The position numbers and the translations under genes are program-made. This document shows positions 34,066 to 61,390 of a stretch of 64,000 nt of DNA, in pieces. The stretch covers positions 443-64,442 of the forward strand of contig JAZKYE010000062.1 in the NCBI GenBank assembly GCA_045611965.1, given 5' to 3'. Below the pieces are notes generated by a model. The model did not search any database. It had not been told where the DNA came from and saw only the letters and a program-made list of their open reading frames with translations. Origin of the DNA: Eubacteriales bacterium (GTDB lineage: Bacteria > Bacillota > Clostridia > Oscillospirales > CAG-272). Within the stretch, counting starts at the first letter, position 1; each line of letters opens with the position of its first letter.

Positions 34066-37000
34066 TCAGCTCTTTTTTAAAACGCATTCAAGCTGATACT
34101 TTTTCGCGCTCTCTGCGTAGCTGTAGAGAGTCTTGATAAGTGAAAGTGCGCTCTTCTTTGCCGCGTTTTCGTCGCTGTTTTCAAGTGCCTCTACATACTG
34201 GATGTAGGACAGCGAGTTAAACTCGGTAATAAAGTCGGTCACGGGGTCATAGGTAAGATCGTCACCGTTGCCGTCAACACCGATAACGATATCCGCGTTA
34301 AAGTCGTAAACCTTGGACTCAAGCTCGTAGAAGTCAAGTCCGTCAGACGTAGCAATACCGTTGATCTCCGTTACAATACCGTTCTCGACGTAAATAAAGT
34401 TCTCGACAAGGGTGCCCTTTGCGCTTGCGTAAGAAAATCTTATCATAGCACTTAGCGTCGGTGCGAAGGTAAATCTGAAGCGTGTCGAGGGCATCGAAAT
34501 ATTAACCGTGACTCCCGTGATGTACTGCGAGATACCCTCGGGGGTCTTGGCTGTATTCTTCGGTGCGAATTCGCTCGGTGTGAAGCCTGCCGCGAGTGCC
34601 GCATTAAGCGCCGCCGCTACCCTCTCGGGTGCTGCCTTTCCTTGATAGAGATATGCTGCCTTTATATATGCGAGCATATCGGTTACCATCTGCTTCGCCT
34701 CTGTCGGATCGTCTTTATTATCTATAACCTTCGTAGCATACTTGGGCACGGAATAGGTCCATTTTGCCGTATGCTGCTTCTGGAATGCGTCAGGGGCAGC
34801 TACGGGTATGACTATCGAGAATTTAATCTCATCATCTGCGTTGAATACCGATATATCCTCGATTGCTATACGGTAGTATTCTTTGCCGTCGTACTCGTAG
34901 TACACGTGGTTTGCAACCTTTCCGTCAGCACCCCATACGGGCTTGAGAGTAGGAATGAAGCTTTTGGATTCGGTCTTGTAAATAACCTCGCCGCCCTCCT
35001 TAAACGAAACTACTGATGCAGGCACATAGATATTGTAGGTAAAGTTGTCAGTAATGCTCAGATTCGATTTAAGCGAGAAATCCGACTTGGTTTTCATAAC
35101 GCATACAGTTCTGTCGGAATCAAGGCTTATAGGATACCTCGGATTAGCAAGAGACAGCGACTCGGTACGCTCAATGCCCGATATCTTCCAGATGAACTTA
35201 TATACGCCTTCCCTTGCGTAATCGAGGTTAGTTTGCTCGATTGATATGGGGCTTCCCTCACCCTTCTCAATGCTCGCGTTATCGTTTTTCGCAGGGGATA
35301 TCATACCGCTTGTCGCAAGAGATGGATCCTCGGTATAGTTAATCCATCTTACGGTAGTTTCACCGTCAGCGAGGGTTACGACCTCAAGTATGTCGTCAAG
35401 CACGAAGGTTCTGCTGTTGAGGTTCGATGTGGCGTTATTGAAGGGCACGGTGATAATGTTGTCACCGCTGTATCTGAATTTCAGTAGCTCGTTTACCCTG
35501 CCGAATTTTGCGTTTTCGAATGCTTTTCCGTTATAGGTAATACCAGAGTGGTTGATAAAATAATCTGCCTTAACTCCATTGGAATTTTTGTTCACAACGG
35601 CTGATGTATGATTGTTGCCGTTAAGATTAATTTTTCCGCTGAAGCTTGCGCCCTCATCATCCACGCCTATGCAGGCAAGAACACAGTTCGTTCTGACACC
35701 GCTCAGGTTTATCGTACCGCTGAACGCAGGAACGTTAACGGTTTGTGTGACGCCGCTCAAATCGACATAAGAATAGGTTGAGGATGCGCCCATTTTATTC
35801 GCAAGGTAGGTGTACTCGGTGAGCGAAACCAGATTAGAATCCTCTATATTCACCACCGCGCTCTCCGTGTTGACGTTGAAGAACGGACCGATATACATCG
35901 TGCCGAAATCGACGCCCTTGAAGTTAAGGCGGGTGTTTTCCGAAAGAGGACGCACAACGAAGAGTCCTGAATAGTCACTGCCCGACTTTACGAATCTGCC
36001 GCCATTCACTGCGTTGACGGTATTATTCTTGCCACGGATATCCGCAATACACGACGAGAAAAGACCTACGTTGCCACCGAGAATGTTAACGACGTTGCCC
36101 TCGCTATGCGGTCCGTCACCCATATGGAATATCGCGCCTGACAAAGTGCTCAAGTCGATTCCTGCGAATATTTCACCGCCGGGAAGCGAGGAAAGAACGT
36201 TCATCGTCGATGCTTCTGCCGCACTCGTGTTATTGAAGTGGAATATCTTCTTGCCATTATCCTCTGATGCACAACGGATAACGGCGAGCCTTGCGCCGTA
36301 AAGGTCGAGCGTCAGGGTTTTGGAATTTATGGGCATCTGCGTATCAGACGTTAACGTAACGTTCTCGCGAAGCTGAATTTTACCGCCGCTCTGAAGCGAG
36401 TTGAAGTCGCTTGCGAACTGCGTCTGGTCAACCGAGTATTTAGTCGCATTTTCGAGCTCCTGCGTGCCGCCGTTATTCCATACTACGTAAACTATCGTTT
36501 TATATACGGCATACAGCTCCTTTTCACCAACCGGTCCCGTAGTCTGATAGGGCTCTGCACCGTCGCTCGTGCCACTCCACGCAACGGGCGCGTAAAGAGT
36601 ATCGTCGCCCGCCGTAGCCGACGGGATGTATTTATTTCTATACTGCGTTTTTATCGGTTGGTTCCACAAAAGCTCGGTAGGATACGAGATGTAAGTGCCG
36701 CCGTATGCGTCATACTCGTTCATTCCGATAACCGAGGTATAGAGGTCAGAGAAGGTATATACTCCGCCCGAGGCGGTGTAGCCGAGAGTTTCCTTAACGG
36801 TGTAATTCTTGAACGTAGCGCTTCCCGTCTGCTTTATTCTGACGGGGTAGTTTATCGCCGTTCCGCTCTCGCTTTTAATAAGATCCACCGTGGAATAATT
36901 GGTCGTGTTATCGTTTATCGCGGCAGTTGTGTTTGTATAATACTTTCCGTACATCTTGCCCTCGGGGGTTACGATGTAGTTCGCGTATGCGCCCATATTC

Positions 37001-40000
37001 GTGCTTGGGTCAGCAGGCGCAGGCGGATTTAAGAAAGTCGAGCCGAAATAATATTCTGTTCCCTGCGTCTTATAGTTGTAGGTTCCGACGGTGTAATTTT
37101 TGAAGCATATATTCGAGCCGATAGCGTAGTTTTTGTCAGGCACGAGATTAAAGCGCAGAGCATCGTATAACACAGGAACTGCGAAAAAGATGTTCCTTTG
37201 AGTACCGACGTGCGAGCTGTTAATGTATAGATCGGCATACGCCTTATCGTAACTATCCTCAAGATAAACCACGAATTTCAGTCTGTTCCAGCTCGTATTT
37301 GCGAGCTTGACGCCACCGCTACCCGCAGCACTCTGCGAGTGGGTTCTCAGATAAACGTCACTTCCGACCGTATCGAAATATGCCGAAACCTTCGTGGTAA
37401 CAAGGTTTTCTTTTCCATCCTCACAACGAATGGTTATATAAGAGCCGTTTCCAATATATTTTAAATCGGTTTTGATATCAATCTCAAACACCATAATATC
37501 GTAGGCGGGATTTTTTCCGGATGAATTGTAAAGAGTGATATCACCGACCTTATCCACGCCTGCTTCCTTGTAGGTGCCTCGTATCAGCAGGTGCGAATCA
37601 AGGCCCGCAGGAACGTCTACGGTTACACCGCCGTCCGTGGAATGCTTGTTGCCAAAGCTTGTATCCGAATTAATGGGGTCCTGAATCTGGAATTTAAGGA
37701 AGCTTCCCTCATCGGAAAGATGCGCCGAGGACAGCTTGCTATCGGAAAGAAGTTCTGCGTCCGAGCCCGAAACCTTATCTGCCGCAGAGAAGTATTTTGC
37801 AGCACCGCCGAGGTTAGCAGGATTTGAGAACATTGCCGCGTCAAGCGCCGAGCTACGAAGGATTGTCTGATTGTTTTCCATCTGCTTTATGATGGCTTCT
37901 TCATCCTTATAGGTATAAAGAGCGTAATCTCTGAAGCAAATATTATCACCGATACCATAGGTCTGATCTACGGCGACGTTGAAGCGCAGAGCATCGTAGT
38001 ATCTCGGTACCTCAGCAAAAAGGTTTACACCGTCACCACCGCCTACCCTGCCGATATGCATTCCAACGAGATAAAAATCAACGTAGTTATCCTTATAATC
38101 GCTGAACAAATTAAGCACCATGGTAATGGTCTGCCACGTACCGTCTTTAACGAGTAGAAGACCGCCCTGACCGTAAGGATACTCGTTATTGGTTCCTCTG
38201 TCAACCACCTGTTCATACGTTCTCACATACGTTTTGTAGCTATTGGCGGCCTCATCCAGGTCCTCGTAAAAATACAGCGACATAAAATTTTTTATCGGAT
38301 TTGATCCGCCATTGGAAAAGCGGAAGGTAAGGACTGAACCATTCCTGATAAAATTCGAATCGGTTTTTATATCAACCTCGAATATCACTTTCTGGTATTG
38401 CGGTGTCGTACCCGCATCGTTATATAAGCGCAGCAATTGCGAGGATGTCGTGCCGCGCATAAGAAGATACGAGTCAAGGCCGCTCGGAATCGTTACAGTT
38501 TTGCCGCCGTCCGTGGAATGCTTATTACCGTAGGCGGTGCTGGATGCCGTGGGATTCTGAATTTCAAATTTAATATAATCGCCCTCATCAGTGAGTCTTA
38601 ACGCTGAGTACTTCTGATTAGGGTTGTTCTGGTCTGCCATCGTACTGCTCTCGGTGTCTTTAAAGTACTTAAGAGCACCTACCACGTCAGGGCTTGCTAC
38701 GGCATCCAGCTCTGAGCTGCGCTGCTTTGTTGAGACGCTGACAAAATTAGCAAGGTTAATGTAAAGCTGATTCGACGTACGTACCGAATACGAGTCAAAG
38801 CATATGGATTCGCCATAATCAAGCCTTGCGTCAGTGCTTACATTATATCTGAAGCCGCTTATCGCCTCGGTTCCGGCCGGCAGAACGTTGTTGTCCGTGC
38901 CAACGTGGGTGCCGTCAATATAGTAATGCACGCTTGAATGCGCGCCCGTCGTACCCGTATCGACAAAGCTTCCGCCTTGATTCTTGATATAGGTTCCGTT
39001 CTCCGACAAAGTATACGTCGAGCCCGACTTCGAGTAACGCCTATCACCCGTAGTATCGGAAAGCTCAAGAACGATAGTAAGCCTGTACCACTGACCTTTA
39101 CTCTTGTTCACCTCATATAAAAGACTCGTAGCGGTATTGGCATTCTTCTGGGTGGTGGTGCGAAGATAAACGCCACCCGACGCCTCGTAGAAGCGCAGCA
39201 TCGAATTATGCTCTGCGAGCTCAGCGTTCTCGAAGGCGGCACGGAAGGTGAAATTTGAGCCATTCGAAAGAAACGTCGAGTCGGTCTTGAAGTGAATTTC
39301 CATAGCAAAGTATCTGAACTTCGCCTTGCCTCTTTTATCGTAAATAAAGGTTCTGTCAACCGCCTCGCTCGCACCGTCGTTGGTGCGCCTGCCGTGCACG
39401 ATGAAATATGATGGCACGACAGTCTTTATTGTATCAGCATCAACGTATCCCGGTTTGCCTGACGCGGTATAGTAGGTGTTAGAGGGTTTAGCGACGTGAA
39501 GCTTGATGTAGCCGCCGTCCTTTGACGGGGATGACGACGAATTTGCCATCGACGTCACCTTGATAGGCGACCTGCCCGTGGTGGTAGTGAGTCCGTCACG
39601 CGCTTCCTGAACGGTGGTGTTATCAGTGCCGTAATAATTGTATCTGATGCTGTATTCGGCCGTGCCCGTACCCGTACTCCACAATGCGTCGTGAAGGCTC
39701 ACTATTCCGTACTTATACGTGAGATCGTCGTATATAGGTGCAATAATGTAGTTGTCCTGCGTGCCGTACTGGACGGACGTGAAGTTACAATTCTTTTGGA
39801 TCTGACAGTTAAATCTGACAGTATCCTCAAGCAGGAAATAATCAGCGGCATCACCTGCCTCATTTTCGGTGTCCTTATCGTCACTTGCCCATAGCAATCC
39901 CGCGATGCCGTACATATCGCAGTTGTTAAAGTAAAACTTCGCGCCCCTGCCTCTGACTACCGAATTTTCCGAGGGAATCATGTAACTCCGATCGGTATCG

Positions 40001-41202
40001 TAAGTATATTTTGCGGCAAGAGTCGCGCCGTCACTCTCCTTTCTTGCATTCGTGAGCTTCGTAATAAGCTCTGGGGTAAGCGGCACTCCGCAGGTAGAGG
40101 CATCCGCCGTGAGCGTAGAGTTTCTTACCTCTATATTGTGCTTGAGCTGCTCGACGGGGCATACTGCACCATCCTGCACGAATACGCGCCAAGCGGCAAC
40201 GAAGGTGCTGGTATCAATCAAAACCTTACCTACAGGCGCAATGTCGTCGGTCGTGTTGATGTATGCTGCAACAGCAGAGTTTTTTTCTCCCTCAAGACGC
40301 CATCCTATCTGATTGCCGTTTGCGTCAAGCTTTCTCGCCCAACCGACAGAGCCGTCCTCGGTGTCGTAGCGCGCAACGGTTGCCTTTACGGTGCAGTTTG
40401 TTATAGTGAGGTAAACTCTGCCCTCTGCCGCAGTGTTATCGGCCGATGCTGCGTGTCTTACGGTAAAGCCTTTTCTCGCGCTGTCAATATAGCAGTTGGT
40501 AAGAGTCGTTTGTGCGTAATCGTAGAAATGGAAGGAAGAGTCGGTCATTGAGGGAATAGTAGAGTCCGTAGGCGATGCCGTCTTGTAAACGACAACTCTG
40601 TCGTATGTCGCCACAACCCTGGACCTCGAATTAAAGAGGCCGTAGGTCGTTTGGGTGCCGTCCTTGGGTGTATATGCCTTGACGTTTGATACATTGACAA
40701 AGCCGTCAGTCGGCGCAATATACACACAGCCCTCACCCGTAAGGGTTATACCGTCGAAGCTACCCTTAAGATTAAAGGTCGAGCCGGCGGGAAGCCTTAC
40801 CATACCCTCCTGCGTGCTAATCCAATTGGAATAGACGTGGATACTACCCTCACCGATGACATTAAGGGTAATTCCCGAGCTCTTTACGTCAAAGATATAG
40901 TCACTTCCGTCGTTGTTGCCCGTATTGGGGCCCGTGAGCTTTTTACCGTTGAGGTCAAGGTTAATATTACAGTTTATCTGAAGGGCGGAAGGTATTTTGA
41001 CATCCCCGATGAGCTTGACGGTCTGCCCACTCTGCGCGGCATTGATCGCCTCTTGAAGCGTAGTATAGCAAGCCGCCCCTATTCTCGCCTGCTTGCCGTC
41101 AGTAGCACCTGCGTATATAGCAGCTGAAAAGCACGCGAAAAGCACCGCCGTAAGAACGGCAGTGAGCAGTATTATAAGTCCTCTTCTTGTTTTTCTTGTC
41201 AT
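34066..41202 (-). CDS. Giant (~2378 aa) secreted or membrane-anchored protein: a beta-helix-like N-terminal region, three LamG/ConA-like repeat modules and a large uncharacterised C-terminal region
   Basis: I prefer the ATG at 41202 (MTRKTRRGLIILLTAVLTAVLFACFSAAIYA), which has AGGAGA 6 nt upstream. The N-terminus (CYTTLQEAINAAQSGQTVKLIGDV...INLDLNGKKLTG) resembles pectate-lyase-fold adhesins. There is no LPXTG, SLH or choline-binding motif. Confidence 0.8.
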   Translation of the reverse strand: MTRKTRRGLIILLTAVLTAVLFACFSAAIYAGATDGKQARIGAACYTTLQEAINAAQSGQTVKLIGDVKIPSALQINCNINLDLNGKKLTGPNTGNNDGSDYIFDVKSSGITLNVIGEGSIHVYSNWISTQEGMVRLPAGSTFNLKGSFDGITLTGEGCVYIAPTDGFVNVSNVKAYTPKDGTQTTYGLFNSRSRVVATYDRVVVYKTASPTDSTIPSMTDSSFHFYDYAQTTLTNCYIDSARKGFTVRHAASADNTAAEGRVYLTITNCTVKATVARYDTEDGSVGWARKLDANGNQIGWRLEGEKNSAVAAYINTTDDIAPVGKVLIDTSTFVAAWRVFVQDGAVCPVEQLKHNIEVRNSTLTADASTCGVPLTPELITKLTNARKESDGATLAAKYTYDTDRSYMIPSENSVVRGRGAKFYFNNCDMYGIAGLLWASDDKDTENEAGDAADYFLLEDTVRFNCQIQKNCNFTSVQYGTQDNYIIAPIYDDLTYKYGIVSLHDALWSTGTGTAEYSIRYNYYGTDNTTVQEARDGLTTTTGRSPIKVTSMANSSSSPSKDGGYIKLHVAKPSNTYYTASGKPGYVDADTIKTVVPSYFIVHGRRTNDGASEAVDRTFIYDKRGKAKFRYFAMEIHFKTDSTFLSNGSNFTFRAAFENAELAEHNSMLRFYEASGGVYLRTTTQKNANTATSLLYEVNKSKGQWYRLTIVLELSDTTGDRRYSKSGSTYTLSENGTYIKNQGGSFVDTGTTGAHSSVHYYIDGTHVGTDNNVLPAGTEAISGFRYNVSTDARLDYGESICFDSYSVRTSNQLYINLANFVSVSTKQRSSELDAVASPDVVGALKYFKDTESSTMADQNNPNQKYSALRLTDEGDYIKFEIQNPTASSTAYGNKHSTDGGKTVTIPSGLDSYLLMRGTTSSQLLRLYNDAGTTPQYQKVIFEVDIKTDSNFIRNGSVLTFRFSNGGSNPIKNFMSLYFYEDLDEAANSYKTYVRTYEQVVDRGTNNEYPYGQGGLLLVKDGTWQTITMVLNLFSDYKDNYVDFYLVGMHIGRVGGGDGVNLFAEVPRYYDALRFNVAVDQTYGIGDNICFRDYALYTYKDEEAIIKQMENNQTILRSSALDAAMFSNPANLGGAAKYFSAADKVSGSDAELLSDSKLSSAHLSDEGSFLKFQIQDPINSDTSFGNKHSTDGGVTVDVPAGLDSHLLIRGTYKEAGVDKVGDITLYNSSGKNPAYDIMVFEIDIKTDLKYIGNGSYITIRCEDGKENLVTTKVSAYFDTVGSDVYLRTHSQSAAGSGGVKLANTSWNRLKFVVYLEDSYDKAYADLYINSSHVGTQRNIFFAVPVLYDALRFNLVPDKNYAIGSNICFKNYTVGTYNYKTQGTEYYFGSTFLNPPAPADPSTNMGAYANYIVTPEGKMYGKYYTNTTAAINDNTTNYSTVDLIKSESGTAINYPVRIKQTGSATFKNYTVKETLGYTASGGVYTFSDLYTSVIGMNEYDAYGGTYISYPTELLWNQPIKTQYRNKYIPSATAGDDTLYAPVAWSGTSDGAEPYQTTGPVGEKELYAVYKTIVYVVWNNGGTQELENATKYSVDQTQFASDFNSLQSGGKIQLRENVTLTSDTQMPINSKTLTLDLYGARLAVIRCASEDNGKKIFHFNNTSAAEASTMNVLSSLPGGEIFAGIDLSTLSGAIFHMGDGPHSEGNVVNILGGNVGLFSSCIADIRGKNNTVNAVNGGRFVKSGSDYSGLFVVRPLSENTRLNFKGVDFGTMYIGPFFNVNTESAVVNIEDSNLVSLTEYTYLANKMGASSTYSYVDLSGVTQTVNVPAFSGTINLSGVRTNCVLACIGVDDEGASFSGKINLNGNNHTSAVVNKNSNGVKADYFINHSGITYNGKAFENAKFGRVNELLKFRYSGDNIITVPFNNATSNLNSRTFVLDDILEVVTLADGETTVRWINYTEDPSLATSGMISPAKNDNASIEKGEGSPISIEQTNLDYAREGVYKFIWKISGIERTESLSLANPRYPISLDSDRTVCVMKTKSDFSLKSNLSITDNFTYNIYVPASVVSFKEGGEVIYKTESKSFIPTLKPVWGADGKVANHVYYEYDGKEYYRIAIEDISVFNADDEIKFSIVIPVAAPDAFQKQHTAKWTYSVPKYATKVIDNKDDPTEAKQMVTDMLAYIKAAYLYQGKAAPERVAAALNAALAAGFTPSEFAPKNTAKTPEGISQYITGVTVNISMPSTRFRFTFAPTLSAMIRFSYASAKGTLVENFIYVENGIVTEINGIATSDGLDFYELESKVYDFNADIVIGVDGNGDDLTYDPVTDFITEFNSLSYIQYVEALENSDENAAKKSALSLIKTLYSYAESAKKYQLECVLKKS
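37080..39560 (-). repeat. Three diverged in-frame repeat modules (~296-308 aa each) within the giant gene; boundaries approximate
   Basis: Recurrent blocks: FAMEIHFKTDSTFLSNGSNFTFR, VIFEVDIKTDSNFIRNGSVLTFRF and MVFEIDIKTDLKYIGNGSYITIRC. Also GNKHSTDGG[KV]TV.[IV]P[SA]GLDS[YH]LL[MI]RGT and YDALRFN[VL]...NICF[RK][DN]Y. Confidence 0.75.
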
Positions 41203-41271
41203 ATGGTATCTCCTGTATGTGTGTATTCTTCGCGCACGAGGGCGCGCAGACAATTAGTTTTATCCAAATAT

Positions 41272-54103: not shown

Positions 54104-56956
54104 TTACAGATAATCCCTGATTTGTGTTTTCACTACCAAAGTATCCTGACTATTTTCGCCAAAGATTTCATCAAGCCTTTCTACGCATTTTGTGCAAAGA
54201 GCGTAGAACTCATCGGCTCTGTCAAAGAACACCGACTCTTTGGCAAGGTCGAGCACATCATATAGCATCGTCGTGAGATTTGATGCGCCGTCAGAGAAGA
54301 GTGCGAAAAGCGAATCAAGCGTCTTATCAAGCGTCTGCTCTGCCTCACTCTGCTGACCGTTATAGAAATACGCGCTTGAAAGAGATGCCATCATCGTAAC
54401 GCGCTTTCCACCCATACCGATAGGGTTGGACGGCATAAGGCTCTCGTACATTGAAATCGCATCAAGGAAGCTTGGAATTGCGACACCGTAATCCTCGTCG
54501 TTAAGATAAACCGTCGCCTTTGAGCCGTAGGCATCGGCAAGCCCCGTCATATACAGCTCGGGGTGCGCCTTCGCTATCTTCTCGTAAATTTCCACCGCGC
54601 GGTTTATATAGCACTTTGCGCTTGCACAGTCGTCGGCATCCATCGCAATCATACACATTCCGTAATTTGCGCTCGCGTCGCATACCACGGCTACACCGTT
54701 GTAATCGGGGTTAGCATCAAAGAAGTCGAGAATATCCTCGTAGGTCGCACGCGCCGTGTCATAATCCTCAAGAAAGAGGTTTGCCGTCGCAAGGTTGATC
54801 CTTGCGGTCATAAGCTTGTCGTAATACACACCGCCCTTCTCTTTGGCGAGAATTCCGTACAGCCTTACCGATTCCTCGCAGGCTTCCTTGGCAAGCTCAT
54901 ACTCGTCAAGCTCAAGATATACTGCGCCGAGGTTGTTATAGGCATCGGCTTGGTTAGGTGTATATGCGTCAGAATTATTCTCGTGAAGCTTCTCGCACAG
55001 CTCTATTGCGCGACGAGATGATTCAATGGATTCGTAAGGCATAAGCATTCTGCGCTGAAGCTCACCGAGGTTAACATAGTTTACCGCGAGCATTGCCGCG
55101 TATGCGTCGAAGGACTCTCTGATAAGTATCTCGTAGCGGCGTATGGATTGGTCAAACGCAGCTCTTGCGGCAAAGGCATCGTTAGTCTGAGCATTCACCA
55201 TAGCAAGGTTAGTGTACGCAACCGCAATGCTTGAGCGATACTGCTCGGGGTTCTTATTCTCAAGCTTTGAGAAAAGGTCAACAGCGACTATTGCGTATTG
55301 CTTTGCGCTCTTTGCGTCGCACATATCGTAGTAGGTTATCGAAAGGTTATTGATGAGCCTTGCGAGAATAGGACCGTAGGTCGAAAAATCGCGCTGTGCA
55401 TCAGGCTTGATGTAACGCACGCCCTCAATGAATGCCTCTACGGCTTCCTTTCTCTTTCCCATTCCAAGGAATGCGCGCCCGAGATTTAACGAGGCAAGAG
55501 CAATATCGCTCTGAACCTTATGACCAAATGATTTTAATATCTTTTTGTAAGCATTTATTGACGAAATAGAGTATTTTAATGCTTTTTCATAGTTGTCAAA
55601 GCTTGCATAAAAGTTGGACAAATGCAGATGGTTAAATGCGTCATCCCAGAGTCTGCTCTTCTCATCCGCCTCGCGCATATCGCATATGCGCTCTATATCC
55701 ATATACACACGCTCTGCCTGCCTGAAGTGCTTATTCTCGCAGTAAAGCGAGCCGAGAAGCCTTGCCGTTCCTACGAGAAGAGCGCGCTCGTCCTTGTTGT
55801 CCTCGTCAAGCCTTTTATAAAGCTGCTTTGCAACCCTTATAGCCTCGTCGTTTCTGCCGTTCTGAAAGAGGAACTCGGCATAGTCATGAACTACCGTTTT
55901 ATCAAGGTCGTGCTTGTATGAAAGCTCGGATGCCTTCTTATACTTATCGCATATCTTTTCAAACGCATCCTTGTCAACACCGCGCGCTCTTTGCGCTTGT
56001 ATCCAGAGCTTGTTTTCTTCAACATAGCCGGAAATCTCTGCCTTTGCGTTCTCTACCCTTTTCTCTGCGACCTCAAGCTCTGCATCACGCTCTTCGTCAT
56101 CAAGCACGCTTTGCGCGCGCTGATAATTACCTGCGTTGAAGAATTCAAGCGCTATCTTCTGTCTGCGCGTAAGCACCCTGCCGTCAGAGGTAAGCTCTGC
56201 TACTGACGATACGAGCGAGAGTGCCTCACCTTCAAGCGCGGTGAGCCTTGCGGATACTCGGTTAACCTCGCTTGCCGCAAGGAAAAATTCGTCCTCGGCG
56301 GCCGCAGTGCGCTCGGAAAAATACCGCTCTCTCGCCACTTTAAGCGTATCCTCAAGACGCGCCCTCTCGGCATATAATGAAGCAAGCTCGTCGTTCTTTG
56401 CGAAAATCGGTATGTTTGCCGTCGAGAGAATATCCTTACCGTCGAGAGTAAGCACACCGTCCTTGATAGCAATTTTATCCTCTGCATCAAGCTTCATCAT
56501 TTTAAGCTGCATAACGATGCCGAGCTTCAGCGTATCAATGTGAGAATATACATTGTAATAATGTCTGTACTCACCGTCGAGCTTTGAAATTATCTCGCCA
56601 AGCGCATCCGACAGAGCCTGCCCCTGCGCGTCGGATTTAAGATATGTAACAATTTTAGGACTTGACTTTTCAGAGAATGCGCGATACGCAACATCAAGCT
56701 CGTGCAGGGTGTATTCCCCCACCTTGCGGTAAAAGAGAAAAATGCAAAGCTCACTGTCCTCAATTTCCTCATCGTACTCGGTCTGCTTTCCCGAAAGTGC
56801 AATAGCGTTGTCATAATCCTCGCATTTAACGAGCGAGATATAAAGCCCCTTGTCGATATAAATCTCGTTAAGCTGACGGATAAAGTCACCTACCGCTATT
56901 CTGTCGTCATTAAGGTCAAGGATAGACGACGCAAGAAATATTTTAATTTTCCTCAT
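54104..56956 (-). CDS. DUF4062 (TIR-like) - coiled coil - TPR repeat protein (~950 aa)
   Basis: The N-terminus KIFLASSILDLNDDRIAVGDFIRQL...SELCIFLFYRKVGEYTLHELDVAY fits the DUF4062 pattern (vFiSSt..DL..eR ... cDlfv.i.g.rYG..T..E...A). A coiled coil of about 200 aa follows. Then come at least 10 TPR-like repeats (e.g. AYNNLGAVYLELDEYELAKEACEESVRLY). No Walker A is present. The start is ATG 56956, or GTG 56962. Confidence 0.65.
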   Translation of the reverse strand: MRKIKIFLASSILDLNDDRIAVGDFIRQLNEIYIDKGLYISLVKCEDYDNAIALSGKQTEYDEEIEDSELCIFLFYRKVGEYTLHELDVAYRAFSEKSSPKIVTYLKSDAQGQALSDALGEIISKLDGEYRHYYNVYSHIDTLKLGIVMQLKMMKLDAEDKIAIKDGVLTLDGKDILSTANIPIFAKNDELASLYAERARLEDTLKVARERYFSERTAAAEDEFFLAASEVNRVSARLTALEGEALSLVSSVAELTSDGRVLTRRQKIALEFFNAGNYQRAQSVLDDEERDAELEVAEKRVENAKAEISGYVEENKLWIQAQRARGVDKDAFEKICDKYKKASELSYKHDLDKTVVHDYAEFLFQNGRNDEAIRVAKQLYKRLDEDNKDERALLVGTARLLGSLYCENKHFRQAERVYMDIERICDMREADEKSRLWDDAFNHLHLSNFYASFDNYEKALKYSISSINAYKKILKSFGHKVQSDIALASLNLGRAFLGMGKRKEAVEAFIEGVRYIKPDAQRDFSTYGPILARLINNLSITYYDMCDAKSAKQYAIVAVDLFSKLENKNPEQYRSSIAVAYTNLAMVNAQTNDAFAARAAFDQSIRRYEILIRESFDAYAAMLAVNYVNLGELQRRMLMPYESIESSRRAIELCEKLHENNSDAYTPNQADAYNNLGAVYLELDEYELAKEACEESVRLYGILAKEKGGVYYDKLMTARINLATANLFLEDYDTARATYEDILDFFDANPDYNGVAVVCDASANYGMCMIAMDADDCASAKCYINRAVEIYEKIAKAHPELYMTGLADAYGSKATVYLNDEDYGVAIPSFLDAISMYESLMPSNPIGMGGKRVTMMASLSSAYFYNGQQSEAEQTLDKTLDSLFALFSDGASNLTTMLYDVLDLAKESVFFDRADEFYALCTKCVERLDEIFGENSQDTLVVKTQIRDYL

Positions 56957-56983
56957 AGCCACCTCTTGTTTTTAATAAAGCGC

Positions 56984-57694
56984 CTACCGCGCGCATTTAA
57001 GCAGCTCTTCGAGCTCGGTGTCGGTAAGGTAGCGCCACTTTCCTCTATCAAGCCCCTCATCGAGTGTGATAGGACCAAAGGTAACGCGCTCAAGCGAGGT
57101 TATTTTGTTATTAACCGAGCCGAGCATTCTTTTTATTTGGTGATACTTTCCCTCTGTGAGAGTTATAATTCCCGAAGTGCGCTCGCTATCCGCCAAAAGC
57201 TCTGCGCTCTTACATACATATCCGTCGGCAAGAACAGCGCCGCGCGAGAAGATTTCCTCACAGTCCGCGCGAAGCGGCTCGGCGCAGGTGAAGCGGTAGG
57301 ATTTCGTCACGTGGCGCTTGGGCGAAAGCCATCTGTGCGCGCTCTGCCCGTCATCGGTAAGAAGCATAAGTCCTACGGTGTCCTTATCAAGCCTGCCAAC
57401 AGGAAAGAGGTCTCTTTCGCGAAGCTCGTCAGGCAGAAGCTCGGTGACGAAGGGATGCGCCTTGTCATCAGTTGCGCTGACGTAGCCCTCGGGCTTGTTC
57501 AGCATCACATAAACATATTTGCGATACTCTATCGCTCTTCCGAAATAGCAAACTCTGTCACGCGCAGGATCTACGTGCGCGGATGCGTCGCGCACGACCT
57601 CACCGTTTACGGTTATGTCACCGTGTTTTGCGGCGCGCGAGGCTTCCTTTCTTGATGCTATCGCCATATCGGATAAAAGCTTATCAATCCTCAT
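56984..57694 (-). CDS. rsuA: Pseudouridine synthase, RsuA/RluB family (S4 domain plus catalytic domain)
   Basis: MRIDKLLSDMAIASRKEASRAAKHGDITVNGE is the S4 domain. The catalytic motif is GRLDKDTVGLMLLTDDG. Start is ambiguous (57694, 57703 or 57715); 57694 gives the typical MRxDK N-terminus. Confidence 0.85.
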   Translation of the reverse strand: MRIDKLLSDMAIASRKEASRAAKHGDITVNGEVVRDASAHVDPARDRVCYFGRAIEYRKYVYVMLNKPEGYVSATDDKAHPFVTELLPDELRERDLFPVGRLDKDTVGLMLLTDDGQSAHRWLSPKRHVTKSYRFTCAEPLRADCEEIFSRGAVLADGYVCKSAELLADSERTSGIITLTEGKYHQIKRMLGSVNNKITSLERVTFGPITLDEGLDRGKWRYLTDTELEELLKCAR

Positions 57695-58613
57695 TGCTCT
57701 CATTATCCGCGGCACACTCGCCGCACTCTTTCCTTTTTATGTTAAAATTAATCTCGCTGACGACAGACGAGCCGACGATAAGAACCGCGCCTATTATCAT
57801 TAGCGGTGTCATGCTCTCACCTATCACTATCGCAGATGCTACGAGCGCGACTATCGGGTCGGTATAGCTGTAAATCGCAACCGTATTTGCAGGAAGTCCG
57901 GTTGATGAGCCGAAATAAAGTATGTATGCAAATCCCGTATGCACGCATCCGATAATAAGGATAGGTATAATCTGCCCTGCCTGAAACGAAAAACCGGAAA
58001 ATCCCCCCGTCAGAAGCACATATGGCACAAGCACCACAGCGCTTACGACGAACTGTGCTGCCGTTTTGGTAAGAGGCTCAATATCCTTCATCTTTTTATT
58101 ACATACTATAATAGCCGCGTATATTATTGCCGCCACAACGCCAAACGCAATTCCCTCATAGGTAATGCCCTCAGCACCGCCATCAATTACCCCCGAAACG
58201 AATACCATACCCAAAAGTGCCGCGGCAATACAGCCGAGCTTTTTTGGCGTGAGGCGTTCCTTAAAGAATATTGGGGATATGCACACGAGAATTATGGGTG
58301 CCAGGTAGTAGGCGAGCGTTGCGGTCTGCACCGTAGTAAGACGGCACGCCTCGAAGAAGGCTATCCAGTTAAGACCGAGCATCGCACCCGAGAGTACAAG
58401 CAGGAATTTATTGCGAAGCGCGCCACAAATATCAGGCTTGCGTCTTAGCACGAGCATAAATAGCGCAATAAATATGAAGCCTATTGCCGAGCGCAAGAGC
58501 GCAATCACGCTTGACGGATACGGCAAAAGCCTCGAAAACAGTCCAACCGTGCCAAAAATCATCATACTGACAATAAGACACGTAAGATTTACTACATAAG
58601 ATTTATTTTTCAC
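57684..58613 (-). CDS. DMT superfamily (EamA-like) transporter
   Basis: 309 aa with about 10 TM helices arranged as two EamA-like halves. Confidence 0.75.
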   Translation of the reverse strand: MKNKSYVVNLTCLIVSMMIFGTVGLFSRLLPYPSSVIALLRSAIGFIFIALFMLVLRRKPDICGALRNKFLLVLSGAMLGLNWIAFFEACRLTTVQTATLAYYLAPIILVCISPIFFKERLTPKKLGCIAAALLGMVFVSGVIDGGAEGITYEGIAFGVVAAIIYAAIIVCNKKMKDIEPLTKTAAQFVVSAVVLVPYVLLTGGFSGFSFQAGQIIPILIIGCVHTGFAYILYFGSSTGLPANTVAIYSYTDPIVALVASAIVIGESMTPLMIIGAVLIVGSSVVSEINFNIKRKECGECAADNESNED

Positions 58614-58889
58614 GAAGGCTGTCCACCTTTTTGAATTCTTTTATTTACGACAATTATACAACTTTATCCGCGCACAGTCAATAACGAAAGCCTCAAAATA
58701 TTTAAAATAAAGAAAAGACATAAATGCTCTTGCTTAAGACGAAAATGAGGTGCGTCAAGATCACTCCTCGCACGCACCATAATTTAATTCTATCATATAA
58801 TCTTTCGTTTGTAAATATGTTTTTGTGTATTTTGCATAATTTCTATATATTGCACAATTTTTTATTGTGAAGTTTTTACAATTTGTCAA

Positions 58890-58919
58890 TAGACACAACG
58901 CTTGACGGTGTGATATACT
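58890..58919 (+). promoter_or_regulatory. Extended -10 sigma-A promoter of the non-coding unit
   Basis: TAGACA (58890-58895), an 18-nt spacer, then TGaTATACT (TG at 58911-12, -10 at 58914-58919). Confidence 0.55.
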
Positions 58920-58930
58920 ATAGGTGCAGA

Positions 58931-59133
58931 GAGGAAGGTACAGTCCAATGGGAAAGTAAAACAAAATCCAAAAACAAAAATCAAGCAAGGAAGGTTCGGT
59001 CCAATGAGAAGTTAACCTAACCCGTCGAAAACAAATAATTCAAGGAAGGTTCACTCCAATGAGAAGGTAGCCCCAAAAATCAAACAGCAGACTATCTTAA
59101 AATCAACAAGGACGGTATAATCCAATGAAAAGT
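58931..59133 (+). repeat. Four tandem imperfect ~27-nt units (consensus CAAGGAAGGU-N4-UCCAAUGAGAAGU) spaced 55-66 nt apart at the 5' end of the ncRNA
   Basis: Units are at 58931-58957 (GAGGAAGGTACAGTCCAATGGGAAAGT), 58986-59012 (CAAGGAAGGTTCGGTCCAATGAGAAGT), 59041-59068 (CAAGGAAGGTTCACTCCAATGAGAAGGT) and 59107-59133 (CAAGGACGGTATAATCCAATGAAAAGT). Confidence 0.85.
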
Positions 59134-59550
59134 TTACTTTAAAACCTCTGTAGGGTGGGCAGACGGTAAAAGAAAATTTCATATCGGAAAGTTGTCGGAA
59201 AGGTTAATCACTAAAAGAAAGGAAAGAGAGCAAAGCTCAAATCGGTGACAACCGTCACCCCGGTGAGGTTACTCAAAGCATCGAAAATCGGTTGGTAGTA
59301 AGAGCTAAACCACGGCGGTGTTACGCATTACATAGATGAAGTAATACGAAGAAAACCAGCTCTTAACCGATAGGTAGAAGCAAAGAGTGCTTCAAAGCTC
59401 CGCAAAATAGAATACTACAAGGAAAGCAGCCTATTCCAGGTTTTGGAAGTAAGATGATTTAAGGATTTCAGCGAGTATGAAAGCAGTAGCGGAGATAGCA
59501 ATACGAAAGTGAGGATTAGTAAAGATGTTAGATATCAAGGATAATCACTG

Positions 59551-59602
59551 ATAGCCCTGAAAGCGCGTGCGTACGAAGCGATTTCAGGGCTATCAGATTT
59601 TT
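59551..59602 (+). terminator. Rho-independent terminator of the ncRNA unit
   Basis: ATAGCCCTGAAA (59551-59562) pairs with TTTCAGGGCTAT (59582-59593), followed by CAGATTTTT. A second small hairpin GGCA-gtata-TGCC plus T7AT5 follows at 59605-59630. Confidence 0.8.
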
Positions 59603-59622
59603 ATGGCAGTATATGCCTTTTT

Positions 59623-60303
59623 TTATTTTTGCACATCTACTATTTTTTCAAGATTATCAAGAATAAATTTCTGCGCCTCTTTGGTAAGGAAAACCGCGGT
59701 GCGTATCTCGCCCGTCGTTTCATCAACGGTATCCTCGGATACAATTCCCACACTTTCCGACATATCGGTGGGAAGATACGCCTTCTCTGATTTAATAACC
59801 GTGATGCGGTCCTCGCGCACATAGCCTGCGTCAGAAAGCCAGCGCATTACCGCCGCCGCGCCGAGATTTTTTACCCCACGGTCGGTTATATGCTTGTTTA
59901 TTCTGGCAACAAAGCCGCCGATGCGTACGGGCTTTTCTGTAAGCGTTATTGCCGCGCGGTCAAGAAATTCGACGGAAAAGGCTCGCTTTTCATATACGGC
60001 AGTAGTGGTTGGCTCTTTCTTCGTCAGCTCACCTATAAGCTCTGCCGCATCGTAAAGCGCCCTTGCTACATCATCCCTTTTAAGAATGGGATCGTCAAGC
60101 AGCTCGCCCGTAATCGGGTCCTTTGATACAGACAAAGCGTAGAGGTAATTTCTTATCGCTTCCGCACGGCACTCGTCATCCCCCTTTGGCATAAGCTCGT
60201 CAGGGTCAGGCGGTATAATCCTATCGCTAACACCGTCAGGTGCTACTACTGCATCAGGAAAGGGCAAGGCGTTTACATCATAAAGTCCGTTATTCATAGG
60301 CAT
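59623..60303 (-). CDS. Hypothetical protein (226 aa), convergent with the ncRNA
   Basis: Clean ORF with an AGAGGAA-type RBS. I recognise no family. Confidence 0.5.
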   Translation of the reverse strand: MPMNNGLYDVNALPFPDAVVAPDGVSDRIIPPDPDELMPKGDDECRAEAIRNYLYALSVSKDPITGELLDDPILKRDDVARALYDAAELIGELTKKEPTTTAVYEKRAFSVEFLDRAAITLTEKPVRIGGFVARINKHITDRGVKNLGAAAVMRWLSDAGYVREDRITVIKSEKAYLPTDMSESVGIVSEDTVDETTGEIRTAVFLTKEAQKFILDNLEKIVDVQK

Positions 60304-60414: not shown

Positions 60415-60443
60415 TTGACAAACTCTAACTCTTCTGCTATAAT
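60415..60443 (+). promoter_or_regulatory. Consensus sigma-A promoter of the tRNA pair
   Basis: TTGACA (60415-60420), a 17-nt spacer, then TATAAT (60438-60443). It lies 16 nt before the tRNA-Thr 5' end. Confidence 0.7.
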
Positions 60444-60459
60444 GTTTACTGTTCGGTGT

Positions 60460-60534
60460 GCTGGTGTGGCTCAATGGCAGAGCAGCTGATTTGTAATCAG
60501 CAGGTTGTTGGTTCGACTCCGATCACCAGCTCCA
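60460..60534 (+). tRNA. tRNA-Thr (anticodon UGU), CCA encoded
   Basis: Manual cloverleaf: acceptor GCTGGTG/CACCAGC, D arm GCTC-AATGGCA-GAGC, anticodon arm GCTGA-TTTGTAA-TCAGC, T arm GTTGG-TTCGACT-CCGAT, then discriminator T plus CCA. Confidence 0.85.
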
Positions 60535-60539
60535 TATAG

Positions 60540-60624
60540 GGGGGAATTCCCGAGCGGCCAAAGGGGGCAGACTGTAAATCTGTTGTCATCGACTTCGCTG
60601 GTCCGAATCCAGCTTCCCCCACCA
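60540..60624 (+). tRNA. tRNA-Tyr (anticodon GUA), class II with a long variable arm, CCA encoded
   Basis: Acceptor GGGGGAA/TTCCCCC, anticodon arm GCAGA-CTGTAAA-TCTGT, long variable arm, T arm GCTGG-TCCGAAT-CCAGC, then A plus CCA. Confidence 0.85.
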
Positions 60625-60781: not shown

Positions 60782-61390
60782 ATGAATCAAATTAAAATCG
60801 GAAGATTTATAGCCGAGTGTAGAAAAAAGGCAAACTTAACGCAAATGCAGCTTTCTGAAAAACTGGGCATCACCGATAAAGCCGTATCAAAGTGGGAACG
60901 TGGCGTTGCAATGCCCGATACTTCGATAATGCTTGAACTCTGTGATATTCTTTGTATCAGTGTAAATGAATTATTAAGTGGGGAGAAAATTGATATGGAA
61001 AATAACAATCAGAAAAATGAACAGCTTCTCTTAGATATGGCGAAAGAATTAGAGCAGAAAAACAAAACAATTTGGTCATCTATGTGGGCAATTATGATTA
61101 TAAGTATAACAGTCCTGATTGCAGGTATCTTTATTGCTGCATTTTTGATTCCCGAAGGAGTGTGGCAGCTTGTCACAATTCTTGGGGTTTGCGTCGTGTT
61201 TTTGATACCGTGCTTCTATGCATTAAAGCTTGAGGTCAGTGTGGGTGCTTACAAGTGCAAAAATTGTGGGCACGAAATTGTACCTACCTACAAGCAGGCA
61301 CTTAATGCGATGCATAGAGGAACGACTCGGTACTTAAAGTGCCCTAAATGCAACAAACGCACTTGGTGCAAAAAAGTATTGAAGAAGTAA
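60782..61390 (+). CDS. XRE-family HTH regulator with two TM helices and a C-terminal zinc ribbon
   Basis: IGRFIAECRKKANLTQMQLSEKLGITDKAVSKWERG is the HTH_3 domain. TM segments are IWSSMWAIMIISITVLIAGIFIAAFLI and LVTILGVCVVFLIPCFYAL. The C-terminus has CKNCGHE...CPKCNKRTWC. The gene is visibly more AT-rich than its neighbours. Confidence 0.85.
   Translation: MNQIKIGRFIAECRKKANLTQMQLSEKLGITDKAVSKWERGVAMPDTSIMLELCDILCISVNELLSGEKIDMENNNQKNEQLLLDMAKELEQKNKTIWSSMWAIMIISITVLIAGIFIAAFLIPEGVWQLVTILGVCVVFLIPCFYALKLEVSVGAYKCKNCGHEIVPTYKQALNAMHRGTTRYLKCPKCNKRTWCKKVLKK

Follow-up and report, generated by a model that had tools for sequence, protein, structure and literature searches.

What occupies the gap of about 1 kb that separates an EamA/DMT transporter gene (57684-58613, minus strand) from a gene for a 226-amino-acid (226-aa) protein (59623-60303, minus strand) in the genome of an Eubacteriales bacterium? 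The stretch analyzed here, called the window throughout, comprises 64,000 nucleotides (nt) of contig JAZKYE010000062.1 (assembly GCA_045611965.1, positions 443 to 64,442), and an earlier note, made from its letters alone, had placed in this gap a non-coding transcription unit with its own promoter and terminator, a candidate large structured RNA. In our analysis the unit is best read, on comparative sequence evidence, as a member of a new and apparently undescribed class of structured RNA in gut and rumen Clostridia, which may act by engaging ribosomes. The gene under study is the following.

58923-59602, plus strand: RNA gene, a promoter-to-terminator unit of ~680 nt whose transcript ends are predicted.

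In the 5' quarter of this gene a 31-nt unit occurs as four direct repeats, at 58930, 58986, 59041 and 59107, which the earlier note had missed. The layout of the unit is AAGGAAGGU-ayrg-UCCA-AUG-RRA-NNN-stop, i.e., a strong Shine-Dalgarno sequence (SD) and then a start codon with two more codons before the stop, with the SD sitting 8 nt upstream of the AUG and the eight bases AYRGUCCA lying between the SD-like AAGGAAGGU and the AUG.

58930-58959, plus strand: unit 1, SD AGGAAGGT at 58932-58939, AUG at 58948, GGA AAG, UAA at 58957-58959 (MGK); nhmmer E=9e-8.
58986-59015, plus strand: unit 2, SD, AUG at 59004, AGA AGU, UAA at 59013-59015 (MRS); E=8e-9.
59041-59070, plus strand: unit 3, SD, AUG at 59059, AGA AGG, UAG at 59068-59070 (MRR); E=4e-7.
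59107-59142, plus strand: unit 4, SD AGGACGGT, AUG at 59125, four more codons, UAA at 59140-59142 (MKSLL); E=1e-6.

The window copies show 74-87% identity to the reference copy and stand 55-66 nt apart at unequal distances; across the family described below the spacing is 44-66 nt, which leaves space for one ribosome on each unit. Because the 226-aa neighbor is almost an orphan, so that the synteny route failed, homologues were searched for with a DNA pattern requiring two units 25-55 nt apart. The pattern was found at 27 loci among 185,579 species genomes and at 23 metagenome loci, mostly from human gut, and 2.9 million viral contigs gave no match. Among genomes, the element is carried by Clostridia metagenome-assembled genomes (MAGs), Oscillospiraceae, Ruminococcus, Lachnospiraceae and Blautia, as well as by one Holdemanella bin, and two cultured carriers are Blautia sp. 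MSJ-9 (locus L007) and Ruminococcus sp. AF41-9 (L028). The locus in the Holdemanella biformis bin (L016, CAVCYJ010000022.1) has a Blautia-type array and Blautia-like neighbors, which suggests mis-binning or recent transfer and not a true member from Erysipelotrichaceae.

A hidden Markov model of the unit built from exact copies collected 189 units, 122 of them unique (an earlier run had given 97 units in 28 loci). Near-invariant positions run from -16 to -8 (AGGAAGGUA) and from -4 to +2 (UCCAAUG), and positions -7 and -6 are variable. AUG is present in 110 of the 122 unique units, and in 103 of these 110 it is followed by exactly two codons and a stop (UAA 83, UGA 14, UAG 6), which is the sequence architecture of a minigene (SD, AUG, one to three codons, stop); the remaining AUG units also stop in frame, after 2, 5 or 6 codons, so that the AUG frame has a maximum of 6 codons. 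In the other two frames, more than 15 codons often pass without a stop. AAA, GGA, AGA or GAA stands at codon 2 and codon 3 is free; no peptide is conserved among the 122 unique units, and no conserved fold of the unit itself was found. The 12 units lacking AUG carry GUG (5), UUG (1), AAG (1), ACA (3) or CCG (2) at this position, and those with ACA, CCG and GUG, which are kept between species, have a perfect AAGGAGGU in place of AAGGAAGGU. Such perfect-SD units, without a start codon (ACA, CCG) or with GUG, lie in the type-B arrays of L006, L012, L017, L018, L041 and L046. The pairing of AAGGAGGU with a non-AUG start, conserved between species, suggests two functional kinds of unit.

The features shared family-wide are a promoter, 2-7 units, a core enclosed by a helix (P1), a long-range helix and a terminal small open reading frame (sORF) fused to the terminator. 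Two subfamilies were distinguished. Type A consists of 18 loci, including the window, L013 (a Ruminococcus MAG) and many Clostridia/Eubacteriales MAGs, and has the order promoter (TTTTTACAAATTGCCAATTGaAA, 17-nt spacer, TGnTATAAT), 2-4 units, variable stretch, core aCACGGCGGUGUUACGCaUUAyAUAGAU, hairpins, GCAAAAGAyAGACAAGGAAAGAGAGGA, sORF and terminator; the promoter, units, core and 3' module align over 16-18 of these loci. Type B consists of 33 loci from Lachnospiraceae and Blautia, where the first unit begins ~35 nt past the predicted start, after an A/C-rich leader, and 4-7 units with a conserved tail UAACGAUUUACCCyAU are followed by a different hairpin and then by CAUAUAGAUGUA. The last type-B unit enters the terminator, reading AUG GAU CAG UCC/UCA GAG/GAA UGA (MDQSE) or UUG GAU ACA GAA UCU UAA. 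L013 is syntenic with the window, having in order a 952-aa protein, a pseudouridine synthase, an EamA gene, the element and then a gene of 227 aa in convergent orientation. The neighbor genes differ between the other loci, and because of this variation the element is regarded as a free-standing gene.

The family was then compared with known classes. A scan of the whole window with Rfam 15 at the gathering score returned two tRNAs only, the same scan of 18 related loci returned tRNAs only and nothing over the elements, and within 58600-59700 at E<=10 there were only three chance matches of 12-18 bits. Within the reach of the Rfam 15 models, this rules out ROOL, GOLLD, OLE, raiA, 6S, tmRNA, RNase P and SRP. 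The earlier note had named ROOL and GOLLD as possible homes for this RNA, or else something new; no covariance model matched for the former, and the latter is what the results support. Its argument had leaned on a neighboring tRNA pair, which exists (tRNA-Thr and tRNA-Tyr at 60460-60624, ~850 nt downstream) and yet does not carry over to the relatives, since only one of 50 related loci (L011) has a tRNA within ~1 kb and the syntenic L013 has none. In the literature, coverage of which was incomplete, no description was found of the unit, core or peptide strings or of tandem mini-ORF or ribosome-sponge RNAs.

The comparison of related loci also bears on the borders of the transcription unit, which are as follows.

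58873-58895, plus strand: upstream promoter block TTTTTACAATTTGTCAATAGACA, an A/T-rich UP-like segment plus the -35 hexamer TAGACA (58890-58895).
58911-58919, plus strand: extended -10 TGaTATACT, present in all 18 type-A loci as TGnTAnnnT.
58923-58927, plus strand: predicted transcription start, ~7 nt past the -10, placed by the family-wide distance from the -10 to the first SD.
59548-59602, plus strand: intrinsic terminator, arms 59548-59566 and 59578-59596, 11-nt loop, UUUUU at 59598-59602.

The proposed promoter, TAGACA and TGaTATACT with an 18-nt spacer, is present and scores 10/12 plus the extended -10. Taken alone the match is weak, because the scan gave 8 promoter-like sites against 4.9 expected. 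In the type-A loci the distance from the end of the -10 to the first unit is 12-14 nt in 17 of 18 (27 nt in one), and related loci have the same upstream block ahead of the element. Together these features are read as a strong sigma-A promoter. The first SD would thus lie ~5-7 nt from the predicted 5' end of the window RNA. At the other border, the terminator is stronger than first described: its arms are 19 nt long and 95% complementary, it consists of a G+C-rich stem followed by a U-run, and 14 of 16 stem pairs show compensatory changes among relatives. An independent transcription unit with its own promoter and terminator is supported by these data. The body is purine-rich as had been claimed (A+G = 62.7% on the plus strand), with a GC content of 40% vs 48% for the window. 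The absence of a credible ORF also holds, the longest one on the plus strand of 58920-59605 having at most 18 codons; the term non-coding stands for ORFs of at least 20 aa and fails for the modules of SD, AUG, two codons and stop and for the terminal sORF. No other part of the family is as conserved or as unusual as these modules and this sORF. The whole stretch folds at -154.6 kcal/mol (z = -2.6 against 20 shuffles), which by itself is weak evidence. The block upstream of the -35 (58873-58892 in the window, and in type-A promoters) holds an inverted repeat AATTGnCAATT (TTACAAATTGCCAATTGTAA in L003), which could be an operator or an UP element. An operator common to other sites was considered and rejected, as the block was found solely at the element's own promoters in the window and the related loci.

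Between the units and the terminator lies a folded domain, where all four helices reported in the earlier note exist. The positions are listed here.

59287-59306, plus strand: 5' strand of helix P1, ATCGGT, bulge GGTAG, TAAGAGCT; pairs with 59358-59371.
59358-59371, plus strand: 3' strand of P1, AGCTCTTA then ACCGAT; in the minimum-free-energy and centroid structures.
59311-59337, plus strand: conserved core CACGGCGGTGTTACGCATTACATAGAT, with the hairpin CAC-GGCG-GUG and then an invariant single-stranded segment.
59377-59393, plus strand: hairpin GAAGCA-aagag-TGCTTC.
59396-59403, plus strand: 5' strand of the long-range helix, AGCTCCGC; core pairs CTCCGC at 59398-59403.
59434-59448, plus strand: hairpin TTCCA-ggttt-TGGAA, inside the long-range helix.
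59489-59496, plus strand: 3' strand of the long-range helix, GCGGAGAT; pairing CUCCGC/GCGGAG.
59143-59286, plus strand: lineage-specific segment shared only by L013, with the hairpin GGTGAC/GTCACC at 59244-59259.

The 8-bp pairing that had been noticed between 59299-59306 and 59358-59365 turned out to be the family's conserved P1. Most type-A RNAs have a P1 counterpart of differing sequence (AGAGCU/AGCUCU, GAACC/GGUUC, GGACUU/AAGUCC, UUUGAACC/GGUUCAAA, CCUGAAC/GUUCAGG, GAACAA/UUGUUC and others), and the P1 duplex energy, tested against shuffles, gave p<=0.017 in 9 of 15 sequences (Fisher p=5e-8). The core inside P1 (CACGGCGGUGUUACGC..AUAGAU) is nearly invariant across type-A loci, and its small hairpin is supported because L014 has CGC-GGCG-GCG, a compensatory change relative to CAC-GGCG-GUG. 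The long-range helix also recurs with different sequences (UCUUUUGC/GCAAAAGA, ACCUUUUAC/GUAAAAGGU, AUCCCC/GGGGAU, GCCCUUAC/GUGAGAGGC), and the hairpin inside it has relatives such as UUCUC-gcuu-GAGAA, CUCUCC/GAGAG and similar. When MAFFT and RNAalifold were applied to whole segments, only the terminator was recovered; the other helices were missed because their arms were misaligned, and the energy-versus-shuffle test and a covariance model were used instead. This model, R1, has an 8-sequence seed and recovers 17 of 17 type-A loci, 9 of them outside the seed. In the R1 alignment, which was itself fitted to the structure, 91.8% of cells of the long-range helix are paired vs 70.3% in shuffles (0 of 500 reach the observed value), 7 of 9 pairs are changed on both sides, and covariation is 0.62 vs at most 0.13 with the partners slid. 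By the energy test alone the long-range helix is weak (Fisher p=0.005). The earlier note's reading as a structured RNA is supported, with helices backed by compensatory changes in homologues for P1, the long-range helix and the terminator. The hairpin at 59377-59393 has only a weaker counterpart in L013, judged by eye, and at the position of GGTGAC/GTCACC the alignment places GGTGG/CCACC of L013, a compensated counterpart. The extra segment of ~150 nt (59143-59290 in the window, 5070-5300 in L013) is common only to these two and contains the conserved stretches GGUGGCAGAGGGUAAAAG and AUCGGAAgGUUGUCGGAAgGGUUA; with this segment and two extra units the window RNA is ~200 nt longer than typical type-A members.

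The 3' end of the RNA carries a second kind of reading frame.

59509-59515, plus strand: SD of the terminal sORF, GTGAGGA, within the conserved motif GAAAGaGAGGA, an invariant block in the alignments.
59525-59551, plus strand: terminal sORF, AUG UUA GAU AUC AAG GAU AAU CAC UGA (MLDIKDNH), 8 codons, with the stop inside the 5' arm of the terminator.

The type-A peptides are MLDIKDNH (window), MLDIKNNH (L013), MLDIKSEQK, MLDTKSEHK, MIEPKQEQK and MTEPKNEQK. Synonymous differences between loci were seen at ATC/ATT, ACG/ACT, AAG/AAA, CCC/CCA, GAG/GAA and CAC/CAT, and the type-B sORF MDQSE changes solely synonymously. The frame and the stop within the terminator arm are kept in the aligned type-A sequences and in the type-B loci examined; L015 has AUA where AUG is expected. 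From these patterns the terminal sORF is probably translated, with its geometry mattering more than its peptide.

We next asked what the unit might bind. By inference, its segment from -18 to -2 can pair with the entire single-stranded 3' tail of 16S rRNA (UGGAUCACCUCCUUU), here the textbook Bacillota sequence. The predicted duplex, AAAGGA.AGGU..RGUCCA with UGGAUCACCUCCUUU, is unbroken along the 16S strand, and the variable positions -7 and -6 of the unit lie in a bulge. The predicted mean ΔG was -15.4 kcal/mol for the units vs -10.5 kcal/mol for 46 window genes and -7.2 kcal/mol for shuffled units. Two further resemblances to 16S rRNA were set aside. The core ACGGCGGUGUUAC (59312-59324 in the window, and in homologues) is almost the reverse complement of the universal 16S 1392-1406 region, the 1392R primer site, save for two missing bases, and this was taken as coincidence because the compensatory CGC/GCG change in L014 supports an internal hairpin; the likeness of GGAAGGUnCGG to the 3' strand of 16S helix 45 was judged a chance purine-rich match.

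Given this architecture, the reading that we favor, at a little below even odds, is that the RNA acts by engaging ribosomes, whether as a sponge, as a "treadmill," as a device that protects itself, or as several of these. Each module would be an optimized translation initiation site whose frame is cut to the minimum. A ribosome starting at a unit would have to stop after two codons and, for this reason, would never enter or unfold the structured core. The terminated ribosome could remain tethered through SD pairing and re-initiate, and the array would keep the RNA loaded with 30S/70S particles, which would protect the 5' end from 5'-exonuclease; the array could also capture ribosomes or peptidyl-tRNA. 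At the other end, termination on the last sORF would leave the ribosome lying over the 5' arm of the terminator, and the state of the 3' end would be coupled to translation. A more specific version, which we hold tentatively and consider rather doubtful, is that the three-codon cistrons are translated and that the RNA is a dedicated ribosome-capturing device with a two-codon "treadmill." Each unit would then hold 30S/70S particles through the entire 16S 3' tail, the abundance of the RNA would determine how large the pool of free ribosomes is, or that of initiator tRNA and peptidyl-tRNA, and the folded core would be the input deciding when capture occurs.

Several results weigh against the proposal that ribosomes are engaged. 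The anti-SD energy is strong and not exceptional, a few ordinary window genes reaching -17 to -22 kcal/mol, and the predicted unpaired probability of the SD-AUG segments, calculated from the partition function, is 0.49 vs 0.44-0.56 elsewhere, i.e., no difference. The missing UGG at codon 4 of the units is not significant, since only ~0.8 would be expected, and the variability of the sORF shows only a mild skew by codon position (9, 8 and 12 extra states). The position of the first type-B unit, ~35 nt from the predicted start, means that 5'-end protection cannot explain everything. Finally, the start-less units (ACA, CCG) with perfect AAGGAGGU are conserved between species, so that initiation cannot be required at each unit, and the GUCCA spacer is conserved beyond known ribosome needs, which a sequence-specific protein explains equally well.

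The last two points lead to the first rival, by which the units mimic mRNA initiation regions and titrate an RNA-binding translational regulator, as CsrB and RsmZ titrate CsrA, with the mini-ORFs as by-products. We consider this unlikely, even though a repeated SD-containing motif within a stand-alone RNA, the conservation of ~20 contiguous positions including the spacer across Clostridia families, and the existence of conserved start-less units all speak for it. CAAGGA, which resembles the CsrA consensus, is enriched through the units (5 vs 0.37 expected), whereas GGA as such is not (14 vs 14.8 expected), and the units are not displayed in conserved hairpin loops, so that the idea of a sponge for CsrA itself was rejected. 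A protein-binding site would also leave unexplained that the in-frame stop is kept while UAA, UGA and UAG are exchanged, with shifts only by threes (L009, L026 and unit 4 of the window), and no candidate protein gene accompanies the element among its varying neighbors.

No more probable is the view that the units are only ribosome-bound 5' stabilizers that block RNase J, with the immediate stop as a safety device, and that the folded core together with the long-range domain carries the whole function. Ribosome binding close to the 5' end is established as stabilizing RNAs in Bacillota, 17 of 18 type-A loci have their first SD ~5-7 nt from the predicted 5' end, and structural selection acts on the core and helices. 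As many as 7 units, conserved to an extreme degree, nevertheless surpass what a cap needs, the type-B RNAs place their A/C-rich leader of ~35 nt ahead of the first unit, and the sORF fused to the terminator is left unexplained.

Quite improbable is an mRNA for a small peptide of 8-9 aa (MLDIKDNH / MLDIKSEQK) with the units as controls resembling upstream ORFs. The sORF does have a conserved SD, a conserved frame and synonymous substitutions; its peptide, however, diverges between subfamilies (MLDIK.., MTEPKNEQK, MDQSE and, from a UUG start, MDTES and MDIQF), conservation is stronger in the placement of the stop within the terminator than in the residues, L015 lacks the AUG, and ~300 nt of conserved structure lie between units and sORF. 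Next to no weight can be given to a known large RNA class (ROOL, GOLLD, OLE, raiA) or repeat system (type III antitoxin RNA, CRISPR), because the agreement in size, host group, purine-rich composition, nearby tRNA genes in the window and tandem repeats followed by a terminator is met by the lack of any Rfam match beyond chance at E<=10, a tRNA adjacency that is not conserved, viral contigs without a match, copies that are divergent and unequally spaced, and no toxin or cas gene.

The proposal that the RNA engages ribosomes would matter beyond this locus. The hosts are abundant gut and rumen Clostridia (Blautia, Lachnospiraceae, Ruminococcus, Oscillospiraceae), and a folded core whose helices covary is not known to occur together with serial near-invariant ribosome-binding sites that each have a two-codon frame. 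If ribosomes occupy the units, this would be a natural RNA acting by loading itself with ribosomes, and the purpose of minigenes, an old question, would become testable; if the RNA is moreover a dedicated capturing device, Bacillota would control translation globally by a new principle. Read most conservatively, the RNA is still a new structured family absent from Rfam 15. To our knowledge, few conserved bacterial RNA classes of several hundred nt span families, and a field has grown from each of them (tmRNA, 6S, OLE, ROOL/GOLLD).

Some features of the surroundings remain to be described. The convergent 226-aa gene has 2 relatives among 5.8 billion proteins, one of these being the protein itself, and gives no match in Pfam, PADLOC or NCBIfam; the only retrievable contig of its relatives is without the element. 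It may share the hairpin of the element as a bidirectional terminator. Beyond it, tRNA-Thr(UGU) and tRNA-Tyr(GUA) (60415-60624, plus strand) stand behind a perfect TTGACA-17-TGnTATAAT promoter, followed by a gene for a 202-aa XRE-type helix-turn-helix (HTH) protein (60782-61390, plus strand) with a C-terminal membrane segment, a zinc ribbon and weak PADLOC matches to RmrA / HTH_VI control proteins. The XRE-type gene and the tRNA genes might mark the edge of an integrated element. On the other side, the 952-aa protein (54104-56962, minus strand; 67-2925 in L013), in conserved synteny with the RNA gene, has no NCBIfam match. The window also contains a very large ORF of 2395 aa (34066-41253, minus strand). 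No toxin, cas or defense match was found among the flanking genes.

How the RNA stands among known systems can be judged module by module. ROOL (RF03087), GOLLD (RF01998), OLE (RF01071) and the raiA motif (RF03072) are alike in being stand-alone genes with their own promoter and terminator, in their length of hundreds of nt, in occurring in gut and rumen Clostridia and in having covarying helices; unlike them, the present family has no consistent tRNA or prophage context, and only here are an array of initiation modules and a terminal sORF found. The CsrB/RsmY/RsmZ sponges share a repeated SD-like motif in a small RNA (sRNA) and possible titration. Here, in contrast, the ~31-nt unit comes with an AUG and an in-frame stop, the units lie outside hairpin loops, and a large non-repetitive folded domain is present. 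In the STAB-SD of cryIIIA and the ermC leader, a strong 5'-proximal SD can hold a ribosome and block 5'-exonucleolytic decay; these are single elements before protein genes, whereas the present RNA has several, each with its own start and stop, and no protein gene comes after them.

Leader-peptide attenuators and dual-function sRNAs (SR1, RNAIII) are similar in their translated sORF with a stop overlapping the terminator hairpin, and differ in that the peptide varies between subfamilies here. A leader-peptide attenuator as such was rejected because in the window, L013, L008, L020 and L025 the gene past the terminator runs convergently, and the downstream genes of the other loci are unrelated. 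A CRISPR array was likewise rejected, since the repeats diverge within an array, the spacers of 13-35 nt are partly conserved between species and a conserved unique domain follows. The type III antitoxin RNAs (ToxI, CptI) consist of tandem repeats followed by a terminator and are known in Lachnospiraceae and Ruminococcus (PMC3401426). Their repeats are near-identical and contiguous, with a ToxN/AbiQ-type toxin gene next, whereas in the present family the spacers differ and the repeats are followed by a long unique domain; in the window the neighboring gene runs convergently and has no Pfam, PADLOC or NCBIfam match, and the neighbors differ among loci, on which grounds a type III toxin-antitoxin system was rejected.

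Closest to the single unit are the minigenes, such as phage lambda bar and the axe-txe minigene (PMC8708949), which consist of an SD, an AUG, one to three sense codons and a stop, and A-rich early codons (AAA, AGA) like those found in the units have been discussed for peptidyl-tRNA drop-off (PMC2034473). No known RNA class was found to combine these modules: the minigenes described so far occur singly, incidentally or within operons, whereas here a structured chromosomal RNA carries at its head a conserved array of two to seven of them.

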